Positions 48,343 through 59,907 of a stretch of 64,000 nucleotides of DNA are shown here, one piece after another. Position numbers and translations under genes: made by a program. The stretch comes from Lytechinus pictus (Eukaryota): assembly GCF_037042905.1 (NCBI RefSeq), contig NC_087252.1, positions 5,334,001 through 5,398,000 of the forward strand. The letters run 5' to 3'. Every line of letters starts with the position of its first letter. The first letter of the stretch is position 1. The notes under the pieces were generated by a model that saw only the letters and a program-made list of their open reading frames with translations, was not told where the DNA came from and made no database searches.

Positions 48343-48409
48343 ATGTTCTCACCAAACAAAGCATGCTTCATCTTCATCGTTTTCATGGTCATGAGTAGCA
48401 TTTCAGAAT
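48343..48409 (+). CDS. Ig receptor copy 2, putative signal-peptide exon (MFSPNKACFIFIVFMVMSSISE)
   Basis: gccaccATG context, hydrophobic core, phase-1 donor T|gtgaga that joins in frame to the V exon at 56096. Confidence 0.68.
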
Positions 48410-49961
48410 GTGAGAAAGCCTATATCTTATTGTGTGATGTATTATCTACTTTTAGACAAGAAAATATAGGGAAATTTAATGATCGAGATGCTTTTTGGGA
48501 GAAAACATTGAGAACTAGTATATTTCAATTTTAATGTGCTGAATCTGGGAAGACCTGTTCCCAGCCGACATCTCATGTTTCGACCACCTAATGTGCATAA
48601 ACAAAATGGCTGCCAAAATGACAATGCAGAATCTCATTTCTACAATATTCTTTTTTGTAATATTCGCTTTCACAGACATGGATAATGTGAAATCTTGTAT
48701 ACATAATATGACCCCTTCAGAAAAATCGTTATTTGTATTTGAGGTTAGTTGATTATGCAATTTAAGTAAATTTACAATAGGGTCATTCCGTGTCATATCA
48801 CCCCCATCCGCATGAATATGTATACATTTGCATAATTTATTAATTAATTGTAAATAAGAAGAGCAAAAATAAAAATTAAAAATGGTACACTTTATGTAAG
48901 CAGTACTTTGCATTATCTACATGTTCAATGATAATAAAATCAAATATAAAAAAAAAAAAAAAATAGAAATAAGATCATAAATGTTCAATTTGCTAGCAAT
49001 TTGTTTATGCAAATTGGGTGGTAAAACATGAGAAATCAGCTTAGGAACTGCTTTTATCGGATTTAGCATATTGGGATTATGTGAAATAGTTTGGTTCCCA
49101 ACTTTTACCCCAAAATGCCTTAAAAAGTTTATTTGAACTCTTTTTTTTCGAAAATGGTTGTAGTCTATATGACATAGTGTAGAATAATGATATTTTAAAT
49201 GGTGTAATATATAATAGACTAGATTCCTAGGACGGTAATGAGAAGGGGTCTATGACCGCGTTCTCAATATCGTCCTAAAACTAGAGAAATTGAAATTTGT
49301 TTCGTAGAAATTGGTTTTTAAGTGTAATGAAAACGTTCGAAGCGGTCTTGGGAGCAATCTTCTTAACTGTTTCGGAAAACAACCTCATAATGTAGTTTCC
49401 AAGATCGCTTTACGTGGGGTGGTTACGAAAAGCACTTTCGCTTGATCTGGTGGTAATGCTGGCAAAGCGATCTTTTAAACTAATTTTTTAACCAATTTCC
49501 AGTAAATCAGTTTACTCAGGTTACTGTTTACTTCACCCAACAAAAAGCTAATTTGAAAAGAAGAAAGCATGAACATCCAACGAGAATAACACTGAAAACT
49601 TCATCAAAATGGGGTGTAAAAAAATATTGCATTTATTTGCACTTAATATTCATTGACCAATTATATGCACATCCTTGTCAGTATGAAAATGAGGAGACTT
49701 ATGTAACCCTTTGATTCTTTTGCATTTCAGTATATGAAATATTTCAATTTTGTCGTCATTTTCATGTGAAACAAAGTTCTATTCCTTCCTGTACATGTGG
49801 ACTTGCCATTTTTTTTTAAAGATTTTGTGGTTCAGTCAATTTGGTCATTGTTATCAAATGTATAAATAATGAAATATTGTTTCATTCAAATACTTATACA
49901 ATTCAAATTATCTCCTACTAAGTTTACGTTATTCGTTTATGATTGGCACAATACGTCATAT

Positions 49962-50789
49962 GAAGAGTTTAGTTGCAAAAGGGGTTAGGTCCACTTTGGA
50001 GCATTTCGAGAAAAAAAAAACATGTTTTTTATTCTCACTTATTAAGATATTCTCATGAAAAACTACAATGTCATGATGTACTACCCTATCATGTGAACAT
50101 AAAATTGGGTATAAAATAAATCTACCTGTCTTCAATTTTTTTCTATATATTTTTGAAAAAAAATTATCATTGTGGACCTAACCCCTTTTGCAAGCAAACT
50201 GAAATGATTCCAATCTCTTTTGATTAAAAAAATAATTTTTCTTTGCCAATTTCATTCACATTTTCATTTGAATTTCAAAATTTCTTTGGTATCGTCAGAG
50301 TGAATAAAAATTTAGAGGTTTAGAGACAGAAAACAATAAATTTTATAAAAAATGGACCTAGCCCCTTTTGACAAATGAGTTCTTCAGAAGAGTTTAGTTG
50401 CAAAAGGGGTTAGGTCCACTCCAAGAAAATCATTTTTTTTTAATTCTCCCATATTGCAATATTCTTATGCAAAACTGAATTTTCATGATACCCCACCATG
50501 AGAACATAAAATTGGGTAAACAAGAAATCTACCCGTTTTCATATTTTTTAAGATATCCTATTATCAAAAAAAATCTGTTTGGACCTAACCGCTTTTGCAA
50601 CTAAACTGAAATGGACCTAACCCCTTTTGAAAAAGGTGATTTTTCTTTGCCATTTTAGTTCACTTTTTTATAGGAATTTCAGCTTTTCTTTGATATCATC
50701 TAATAGAGCTACTAAAAATCTATACATTGAGACATAAAAATCGAATTTGATGAAAAATGGACCTAACCCCTTTTGCAATTGAGCTCTTC
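49962..50789. mobile_element. Head-to-tail dimer of a ~410-bp MITE with 4-bp TSD (Sola-like)
   Basis: atat|gaagagtttagttgcaaaaggggttaggtcca ... gagttcttc a gaagagtttagttgc ... gagctcttc|atat. Confidence 0.75.
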
Positions 50790-57770: not shown

Positions 57771-58895
57771 TCTGAATATAAAAAAGGCCCAAGTCCAACT
57801 TTTGGCGAAATTGAGTTAAATATGGAAAATTGTTCCTTAAAAAATGACCCATCTTTAGTATAAAGTTGATGATGAATCTGAGCTCATCTCAGAAATGCCT
57901 TGAAGAAAGGTGGAAAATCTGCTATGAGTGTAAGAAAAGCCCAAGTCTTAGACTTGGGCTTTTCTTACGTTCATATTAAAGCGCCCTCTTCCATTACTTC
58001 TACTACTTACTACAGAAGTCTGCCATGTATATGAATGTAAGAATGAACCAAGTCCATATGATTATAAAAACGACCAAAGTCCACCAGATAAAAGACCCTG
58101 CCCACAAGTATATTAGACAGCTTTCGATTGTCTGCGACTGCAACGTATTCCTAGTTCACCGGAAGTGGTGACACAGCTTGTTCAGTATCACGTTCGTACA
58201 TTGATGAAAACAGTTTCGATTTAAGTCGACGTATACCCGTACCAGGCCACAGCATATACCAGCGTGATAGCGAGCGGGCCGTGGGCCGATGCTCGGCCGG
58301 AAAATCAGGCGACTGTGGGTGCGACATTTGCACTCTTGCGCAAAAAGCCAAAAAAAAAACACAGTTGTTTGGAAATAGAACATCAGTTACCTATCGGATA
58401 TGTAGTGTCTGAAAACAGGACACACTAAATGTAATGGAAGAGCAGGTAACAAGCAGTAATTTGCAGTTTACCAGCCCTGCTGAATCAACGAAACTCAAGT
58501 GTTGATGCGGCTTCGTTCATTTTTGCTAAGCTTGGATGACGTCATCATGTACAAACAAACGCTCGTTCGAGCACTATGACACCGAACGTCAAAACCCTCA
58601 AATACGAGTCACAGATTTGGGCAGTGAACGAGAAGGCTCGTCACAGATTACTTCGCGCATGCGCAGCGCTCCCAAAATTCCTTAATCTCGTACGTTCACA
58701 TGGCACGTCACAGAAAACGAAAGCTCTCTATTATTGTTCATAAACGAATGTTCACTTGGATTTGTTTAATGATGTTCTCTGATGTCTTTTGGCAAAAAGT
58801 TCTTTAATTGCCCCAAATATATATATATATATATATAAATATATTTCAATTTTCTCGAAATGATCTCCAATGGACTTGTGCCTTTTCATATTCAT
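57771..58895. mobile_element. Non-autonomous TIR element in the copy 2 intron, absent from copy 1
   Basis: tgaatataaaaaaggcccaagtcca vs tggacttgtgccttttcatattca; intron similarity to copy 1 resumes at ~59120. Confidence 0.6.
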
Positions 58896-59801
58896 AAAAT
58901 CAATTACTAATTATATTCAATAATACTATCTTAATGTAAGAGTGCGGGTGCGGAAAAGGAGATGCGGGATCAGGAGGGAAAGAGCGCTTGGTCCATACAA
59001 TGTATCTGGATTATGATTCTTTTTTCTTTCTTTTTGAAGTAGAGATGTTGTAGTAGACAACAAAATCATGTATATATTTTCGTGAGTATTTGTTAAGAAG
59101 AATTGTTTTAAAGGGAAGAATATCTTTCTAAAGTTTAGACGTTGATTTTATGGGCAACCATTTTGGGTATATGCTTTCGGAAATGTATATACTATCTTTA
59201 AGAAACTTCGAAAAAATGCATCCCCCCCTTATGCATATTTATTACGCTAAGAATCGTGAGGAACTAACGGAATATAATACAACTTTTCCCATTTGATACA
59301 TCTCAATGACATGAATGAGGATGTAATGGTATTTGAAAATCCGTTTTTATTACTTCTACTTTGATTGAAAAACTGTGCAAATAGCCTGTCGAATCATTTG
59401 CAAATTTATTTTCGACTAATATCAAGTGATCATGCAGATAGCAATCCTGTCATAGGCTTACGAATTTATTCAGAATTTTATTGAGTCATTTAGTACACAG
59501 GGACATTAAAACGCATATCAACATGAAGTGCATCGTGTACTGATAAATGTAAAGATTATTCTTGTTCTCCCTTTATGCGTATTCATAGAAAAAAAAGATA
59601 ATTATCCTACAAAGGAATAATGTTAAATAAATATGCTAACATCTGTGACCAGATCAACCTACAACGTTAATAGTTCGACATCATAATTGTCAAAATAAAA
59701 TATCTTGCGACTTCGTCAAGTAGATGGCACTTACGCTAGCGATAATAATTATATTTCATTGAAATGTTTTTAAGGAATGATTGTTACATTCTTATTGACA
59801 G

Positions 59802-59907
59802 GTATCCAAGTCGCATCTTGATCACAACTATACCTGTCAAGCTAAAGGGGAAGCCGTGAATGGAACCTCATCAGTAGATATTTCTTTTGAGGATTCTGCT
59901 ACACATG
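59802..59907 (+). CDS. Ig receptor copy 2, C-type Ig exon b
   Basis: gacag|GTA..CAT G|gtagga; VSKSHLDHNYTCQAKGEAVNGTSSVDISFEDSATH. Confidence 0.88.

Follow-up and report, generated by a model that had tools for sequence, protein, structure and literature searches.

The closest described counterpart of the receptor tail reported here is the C-terminal ballast of P2X7. Excerpts of PMC9587614 trace this ballast to the KolX protein of Kolobok transposons, and excerpts of PMC7016195 describe ballast-type domains outside P2X7 as free of transmembrane (TM) regions and of large expansions. According to parts of PMC9574498, the human ballast in isolation forms a trimer and binds guanosine diphosphate (GDP) and Ca-calmodulin; its role in P2X7 is treated as an open question in excerpts of that paper and of PMC9859053. 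Here we analyze a window of 64,000 nucleotides from the sea urchin Lytechinus pictus (contig NC_087252.1, hereafter C8; the window is C8:5334001-5398000) that holds parts of two tandem immunoglobulin (Ig) receptor genes, copies 1 and 2. With a probability of about 70%, we read copy 2 as a member of a five-copy cluster of predicted receptors, each built of a signal peptide, an IgV domain, an IgC2 domain, a TM helix, a linker and a ballast, with a tail that probably derives from KolX and is likely to signal by clustering.

Comparison of the window with itself by BLAST revealed same-strand duplicate blocks, 6269-9948 against 54515-60675, at an offset of 48-51 kb and with 70-84% identity (E down to 0). 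The first-pass annotation of this DNA had described duplicated V, Ca and Cb exons with open frames and conserved splice sites, and a signal exon that completes the N-terminus of copy 2. Both descriptions hold: the coordinates are exact, the in-window exons of copy 2 are bounded by AG/GT, follow one another in phase (1,1,0,1) and are free of stops, and the signal exon has a phase-1 donor, with an exon of the same type ahead of every copy and at the start of the RefSeq copy 3 model. The TM and ballast exons, which had been reported missing before the window end, with a search beyond it proposed, were found in the flanking DNA 10-14 kb past that end, from C8:5408221 onward. The exons of copy 2, and the part of its long intron inside the window, are as follows.

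Window 48343-48409, plus strand: signal-peptide exon, coding part, 67 nt, with the ATG in GCCACCATG and the phase-1 donor GTGAGA
Window 56096-56428, plus strand: IgV exon, V-set, with an F-G loop of variable length
Window 57308-57567, plus strand: Ca exon, first part of the C2-like Ig domain, B-strand cysteine lost
Window 59802-59907, plus strand: Cb exon, second part of the C2-like domain
Window 59908-64000, plus strand: first part of the Cb-TM intron, which runs past the window and is 14.3 kb in full
C8:5408221-5408352, plus strand, beyond the window end: TM exon
C8:5409139-5409520, plus strand, beyond the window end: B1 exon, linker plus ballast
C8:5410141-5410309, plus strand, beyond the window end: B2 exon, ballast
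From C8:5412045, plus strand, beyond the window end: last exon, 9 codons

Joined, these exons give a stop-free frame of 483 codons through the end of B2, and the V exon matches the Pfam V-set profile at E 9e-10. Copy 2 is an unbroken signal-IgV-IgC2-TM-P2X7-type ballast gene. A truncated copy 2 is ruled out by the TM and ballast exons in open frame past the window. The N-terminal exon is hydrophobic, the property from which a signal peptide was judged, and TM hydropathy is 2.4-3.8; the encoded product is predicted to be a type I, single-pass receptor.

We searched the 812-Mb genome, of which C8 forms a 42-Mb contig, with the exon queries. The V exon gave 26 matches among 62 candidates, 12 of them close and on C8 (40-100%) and 14 weak, 13 of the latter on C9. 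Ballast exons B1 and B2 gave 15 and 28 matches, respectively, and the best five of each (68-100%) follow tandem V exons at 5.34, 5.39, 5.44, 5.52 and 5.58 Mb. All five copies have seven open-frame exons without a single stop, TM and ballast exons included, and all differences in exon length are divisible by three. Copies 1-4 share 70-82% protein identity with a synonymous divergence (dS) of 0.17-0.32 (73% and 0.32 for copy 1 against copy 2) and are therefore paralogues. As had been noted before, copies 1 and 2 carry different inserted blocks, one of them being 57575-59282 in the Ca-Cb intron of copy 2. The multigene family postulated at the outset thus exists, with five tandem ballast copies and 12 close V exons on C8. 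Ig, TM and ballast (Pfam P2RX7_C, PF20478) are joined in a single protein in the RefSeq model of copy 3 (XP_063959511.1) and likewise in record P0001, and P0005 of L. variegatus joins Ig and TM to half a ballast. Five L. pictus records found only in nr (P0001, P0007, P0008, P0010 and P0011) match no copy in the assembly exactly, which hints at haplotype or copy-number variation; P0001 is of the full Ig-TM-ballast type and differs from all of copies 1-5.

PF20478 is matched at 66.5 bits by P0002 (copy 5), whose ballast is 98% identical to that of copy 2, and at 62.2 bits by P0004 (cut-off 23.5). By sequence, the tail matches P2X7 structures at E 5e-10. In the structural model of the copy 5 tail, the predicted local distance difference test (pLDDT) exceeds 90 across most of the ballast, and the best 14 Foldseek matches are all P2X7 (E 5e-5 to 1e-3). 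Seven zinc-type cysteines are present in all five copies and are at least 90% conserved in an alignment of 103 sequences.

The ballast tail was likely captured from a Kolobok KolX gene. Of 12 dispersed ballast loci examined, six carry a transposase-like open reading frame (ORF) on the strand opposite to the ballast, and the loci include three pairs that are 98-99.7% identical over about 10 kb. Kolobok transposons duplicate a TTAA target. The C15/C19 element pair has inverted TTAA-AG...CT-TTAA ends and a 674-codon ORF that matches PF20700 above cut-off; judged by their sequence, these source elements are Kolobok elements of the Kol0 type, with a transposase plus KolX and RR...YY termini. The nearest element, on C16, has a 554-codon transposase-like ORF and is ~50% identical to the receptor ballasts. 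At the codon position of the receptor B1/B2 junction, eight of nine KolX loci examined carry the same phase-2 intron, and this shared intron therefore indicates that the tail was captured as DNA. In the ballast tree (49 rows, after 5 of 42 candidate rows were dropped for a missing anchor motif) the six receptor ballasts fall into a single clade (100/100) within the KolX group of this genome (98/96), sister to the C16 element (95/79). The receptor tail is wired in by splice sites. No transposase was seen beside the receptor tails, with no search aimed at transposases made across the cluster. Around three tails, a nucleotide search gave no match to Kolobok ends among the matches listed, which were general repeats and one weak 65-bp coding match of B2 to a C11 locus. 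At C11:10990342 (L091), a match to the second half of the ballast adjoins transposase ORFs that are not of Kolobok type and that we take to be piggyBac-like. Such piggyBac families are mentioned in excerpts of PMC9587614.

The 12 close V exons on C8 belong to the five tandem ballast genes and to seven relatives with other ends. P-loop GTPase tails occur in two of the seven (PF01926 above cut-off in P0166; the second gene matches P0022, also above), and the GTPase-tail exon has only two matches in the genome. One relative has a death-domain-like tail, below the Pfam cut-off at E 0.004 and a lead only in Atlas (first hits 0.85, TM score about 0.6); another combines coiled-coil-like repeats, recognized by eye, with a ubiquitin-like end below cut-off; and one further C8 relative has a coiled-coil-like tail. 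In two of the seven, one with a frameshifted V exon, no TM exon was found in the DNA examined, which omitted 8345001-8415000. The proposal that family members might have different or absent tails thus applies to these relatives, with their other tails or no TM exon found, and fails for the five tandem copies, all of which have TM and ballast. In the inverted neighbour, the gene whose tail is of the coiled-coil/ubiquitin-like kind, three candidate signal exons lie on the minus strand (C8:5212976, 5230034 and 5246875), two of them used by RefSeq isoforms. One of the three is 97.7% identical to the copy 2 signal exon over 173 nt, a likeness that suggests recent exchange between head-to-head genes. 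One EukProt record is also GTPase-tailed, and two Diadema records have a tail that is P-loop-like by eye, without a Pfam match at E 0.001; these records suggest that GTPase tails are the older state in the family.

Ectodomains of the ballast genes, including that of L. variegatus P0005, form one clade (99/98; 23 rows). The V-set domain has its B- and F-strand cysteines and its C-strand tryptophan. In the C2 domain the B-strand cysteine, and with it the canonical C-type disulfide, is lost in all eight ballast-clade rows and kept in all 15 others, and the C2-set profile is barely at cut-off in P0004 (21.9 against 21). The F-strand cysteine of the five copies (in copy 2, encoded in 57308-57567 and 59802-59907) thus lacks its canonical partner, and might be buried or link receptor chains. 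A second cluster, at C9:1.33-1.53 Mb, holds at least 13 distant V exons with 29-35% identity.

The receptor frames are under purifying selection. In all pairs of copies that show differences, the ratio of nonsynonymous to synonymous substitution rates (dN/dS) stays under 1 for V, C and ballast, with values of 0.18-0.65 for the ballast over ten pairs, 0.38-0.50 for C and 0.31-0.96 for V in nine pairs (undefined for the identical pair); TM and linker values spread from 0.4 to 3.5, on few sites. Fisher tests gave p values of 0.0007 (copies 2-4), 0.0075 (1-2) and 0.03 (1-3) for the ballast, and the whole coding sequence of copies 1-2 has a dN/dS of 0.48 (p 7e-7). For V in pair 3-4 the Fisher test was not significant, and pairwise dN/dS over the nine pairs did not demonstrate positive selection on V, whose variation is clearest in the F-G loop, with length differences of up to five residues. 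When neutral evolution was simulated with substitutions only, the whole coding sequence stayed open in 0.15-0.5% of runs per copy. As a decay control we used a co-duplicated G-protein-coupled receptor (GPCR), which is open (380 codons) in one of its three copies and broken in two.

We propose that the ancestor was a member of an older echinoid V-C2-TM family with GTPase-type tails in Lytechinus and other sea urchins. A two-exon KolX gene would have been captured once, as DNA, behind the TM exon via a phase-1 acceptor, before the divergence of L. pictus and L. variegatus; the ballast receptor would then have been amplified in tandem, with its outer and inner halves exchanged. Consistent with such exchange, the grouping of copies 1 and 3 against copies 2 and 4 is backed by 45 of 51 informative sites in the tail as against 11 of 26 in the ectodomain (copies 1-4; Fisher p 7e-5). 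The V domain, whose F-G loop varies most, may bind a cell-surface or non-self ligand, and clustering driven by this ligand would bring zinc-stapled ballasts together to self-associate. The associated ballasts could then form a docking platform for partners, an alternative to the GTPase, death or coiled-coil tails found in the relatives. This functional step of ligand binding, clustering and ballast docking is the weakest of the scheme, and we put it forward tentatively. In modeling, two copies of the ballast scored 0.40, against 0.10 for the best of three controls, with at least 80% of contacts agreeing across the two-copy runs and a pLDDT of at least 79; 17 of 29 eukaryotic homodimers and none of 30 monomers reached the mark for such predictions. 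The trimeric state of the isolated human ballast is in line with self-association as well. At a little short of even odds we place a wider idea, that the family evolves by exchanging its signalling tails as entire units (P-loop GTPase, death domain, coiled-coil/ubiquitin-like), the newest being a domesticated transposon protein that self-assembles to signal, and that KolX has been repeatedly recruited as a receptor tail: in P2X7 of vertebrates, in this cluster of Lytechinus and possibly in a frog gene resembling class I of the major histocompatibility complex (MHC).

Several points weigh against the KolX-tailed receptor cluster as we read it. Only one of seven eukaryotic cases without a solved relative reached the two-copy mark, and the pass of the ballast may therefore reflect memory of P2X7 structures. 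Under simulated neutrality, chance suffices to keep the ballast, taken by itself, open in 10-19% of runs per copy. The bootstrap of the ballast tree had not settled (0.973), and P2X7 is not among its rows. In copy 3, B1 lacks its usual acceptor (CAG changed to CAC) and 27 codons; an AAG nine bases further on preserves the frame and is the acceptor used in XP_063959511.1.

Other such points would fit a copy 2 that, like copies 4 and 5, is split or silent, its Cb-TM intron remaining unspliced to give a secreted Ig decoy, a separate TM-ballast protein or both. RefSeq divides copy 4 into the ectodomain-only P0006 and the TM-tail P0003, and its model of copy 5, P0002, is tail-only. The Cb-TM introns of copies 4 and 5 are long (14 and 26 kb), and that of copy 2, of similar length at 14.3 kb, is filled with transposons and contains a 673-codon ORF resembling a long interspersed nuclear element (LINE). 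The protein database matches include no record for copy 2 itself, and its signal-exon donor is GTGAGA instead of GTGAGT. A look-up of RNA data sets with the TM-B2 stretch of copy 2 listed none, a result that speaks neither for nor against transcription. We nonetheless consider this alternative improbable, since purifying selection acts on both halves of copy 2, all splice phases match, these genes have other introns of 15-38 kb, and the tail-only models begin within the TM exon or in an intron.

Slightly less probable again is that the ectodomain does the work, in adhesion or binding, and that the ballast is a tolerated passenger that needs only to stay folded. A dN/dS near 0.5 is merely moderate constraint, many tails are tolerated among the relatives, and the cysteine-rich half of the ballast is absent from the L. 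variegatus model. The P2X7 GDP contacts, listed in excerpts of PMC7016195 as R546, H547, R574, R578 and K583, are mostly lost as well, with only the equivalents of R546 and R578 retained, and GDP binding by the urchin ballast is doubtful; according to the same excerpts, the contacts are also mostly lost in most non-vertebrate ballast members. Against a mere passenger, however, the seven cysteines and the open frame are retained in all five copies, dN/dS is lower for the ballast than for V in six of nine pairs, and an early stop after the TM, which would be an easy route of loss, is not seen.

It is very unlikely that the tethered ballast acts as a host brake on Kolobok by holding the KolX protein of the transposon at the membrane. 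The genome does contain young Kolobok elements whose KolX is intact (the pairs 98-99.7% identical), and self-association of the ballast is predicted, but the nearest KolX is merely ~50% identical, and diversified, selected Ig ectodomains would be unnecessary for such a brake.

Less credible still are classical paired activating and inhibitory receptors in the style of KIR, LILR or NITR, one form of the paired receptors that the first-pass annotation had raised. The tandem Ig cluster with shared ectodomains, its mosaic exchange and its two tail classes (copies 1 and 3; copies 2, 4 and 5) would suit them, but a motif scan of nine tails found no immunoreceptor tyrosine-based activation (ITAM), switch (ITSM) or cytoplasmic inhibitory (ITIM) motif. 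ITIM-like strings occur only in copies 2 and 5, at the edges of the TM helix, and the best 19-residue TM window is free of charged residues in all five copies.

An assembly artefact of haplotigs, judged unlikely from the start on account of differing insertions, has next to no credibility for the tandem arrangement as a whole and would explain at most copy 5, since copies 1-4 differ in 18-30% of residues at a dS of 0.17-0.32 and the 534 kb of cluster region sequence contain not one N. For copy 1 against copy 2 (dS 0.32) an artefact is excluded; for copy 2 against copy 5 it is conceivable. The latter two are 98-99.8% alike over about 53 kb and do not differ at all in their V and C exons. Around the signal exon and from TM to B2, however, their divergence is 2-7%, with 9 of 44 residues different in the TM exon; copy 5 alone carries an 11.2-kb insertion (C8:5591537-5602739) flanked by a TTA duplication; and the unit after copy 5 retains the copy 3 signal exon without the copy 3 gene body. 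We favour a real young duplication, and regard a false duplicate from the second haplotype as unlikely, though far from negligible. The 11.2-kb insertion has short inverted ends and no convincing long ORF, and resembles a non-autonomous element of PIF/Harbinger type.

The other features of the window concern copy 1, for which a signal exon had been expected upstream and was found there, and the spacer between copies 1 and 2.

C8:5325042-5325105, ~9 kb upstream of the window: nearest signal exon of copy 1
C8:5298723: second candidate signal exon of copy 1
Window 6952-7269, plus strand: copy 1 IgV exon
Window 8664-8923, plus strand: copy 1 Ca exon
Window 9586-9691, plus strand: copy 1 Cb exon
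Window 13333-13461, plus strand: copy 1 TM exon
Window 14312-14696, plus strand: copy 1 B1 exon, acidic linker plus first half of the ballast, ending at the KolX-type phase-2 intron
Window 16510-16684, plus strand: copy 1 B2 exon, second half of the ballast
Window 17476-17541, plus strand: copy 1 last exon, 21 codons plus stop
Window 34441-35387, minus strand: broken rhodopsin-family GPCR in the spacer, duplicated along with the repeat unit

The GPCR is intronless and lies in three repeat units (window 34441-35387, minus strand; C8:5455996; C8:5547118). Two LINE-type retrotransposons, labelled by eye, occupy 1458-4591 and 24133-28029 of the window, both on the minus strand, with endonuclease/reverse-transcriptase-like ORFs in pieces. 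Tandem repeats lie at 40153-41550 (units of ~76 bp) and at 15614-16019 (~133 bp), the second inside the copy 1 B1-B2 intron.

The urchin proteins share with P2X7 a C-terminal ballast after a flexible linker, the seven zinc-type cysteines, the same predicted fold (reference structures PDB 6U9V and 9E3M) and a probable KolX origin. In contrast to P2X7, they have one TM helix and two Ig domains and no match to the P2X receptor profile, so the name 'P2X purinoceptor 7-like' that RefSeq gives to P0003 fits just its tail. Their ballast also differs in keeping the KolX intron, in retaining two of five GDP contacts and in having been amplified into a cluster. It is far closer to KolX of its own genome (131 bits, P0023) than to P2X7 (~42 bits, with a different query and library), which argues for a capture independent of that in P2X7. 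With KolX of the Kol0 lineage, as characterized in excerpts of PMC9587614, it shares ~50% identity to the nearest element, the phase-2 intron and a nested position in the tree, whereas its N-terminus has been swapped for receptor and linker and a new B2 donor leads to a short last exon.

Nectin, CD96/Tactile and B7-type receptors have the same signal-V-C2-TM layout as the urchin proteins, which match V-set and CD80-like C2-set profiles, and RefSeq labels some of the relatives 'nectin-like'. The urchin receptors differ in a C2 domain split across two exons, an extra N-terminal cysteine pair, the loss of the B-strand cysteine in the ballast clade, and family tails of GTPase, death-like, coiled-coil/ubiquitin-like or ballast type. 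Those close matches that were named are echinoid only (Lytechinus, Diadema and one EukProt record). KIR, LILR and NITR clusters consist of tandem Ig genes with a variable ligand-binding domain and mosaic exchange between copies. Unlike these, the urchin cluster has no ITIM, ITAM or charged-TM system, and its tail diversity comes from whole domains.

Among other ballast fusions, P0051 of Hyperolius riggenbachi (XP_068105448.1 and three isoforms) is an MHC class I-like RefSeq model with a TM-like stretch and a C-terminal P2RX7_C. Its ballast does not group with the urchin ballasts in the tree, and it may represent a third case in which KolX became a receptor tail, or else a fusion made in annotation. 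BTB-BACK (in a frog), THAP and weak KRAB fusions (P0169, P0135 and P0153) could be real or merged transposon models. Longer ballast fusions numbered three proteins among 7992 scored candidates, in a profile search that missed even P2X7 and says little on absence. No Ig-TM-ballast receptor was found in the published literature searched; the KolX alignments that accompany PMC9587614 and the sequence lists of PMC7016195 may be relevant to how new such a receptor is.

Duplication in tandem is commonplace, and P2X7 is a known case of KolX capture; an Ig-TM-ballast cluster in a tail-swapping family is apparently new, and the value of the locus lies in this tail and this family, not in the duplication. 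A second, independent and recent capture of KolX, on a receptor with one helix and intact in several copies, suggests that the domain has a use of its own as a receptor tail. The cluster thereby offers a channel-free system for probing the role of the ballast, with natural variants and with sister receptors that carry known signalling tails.

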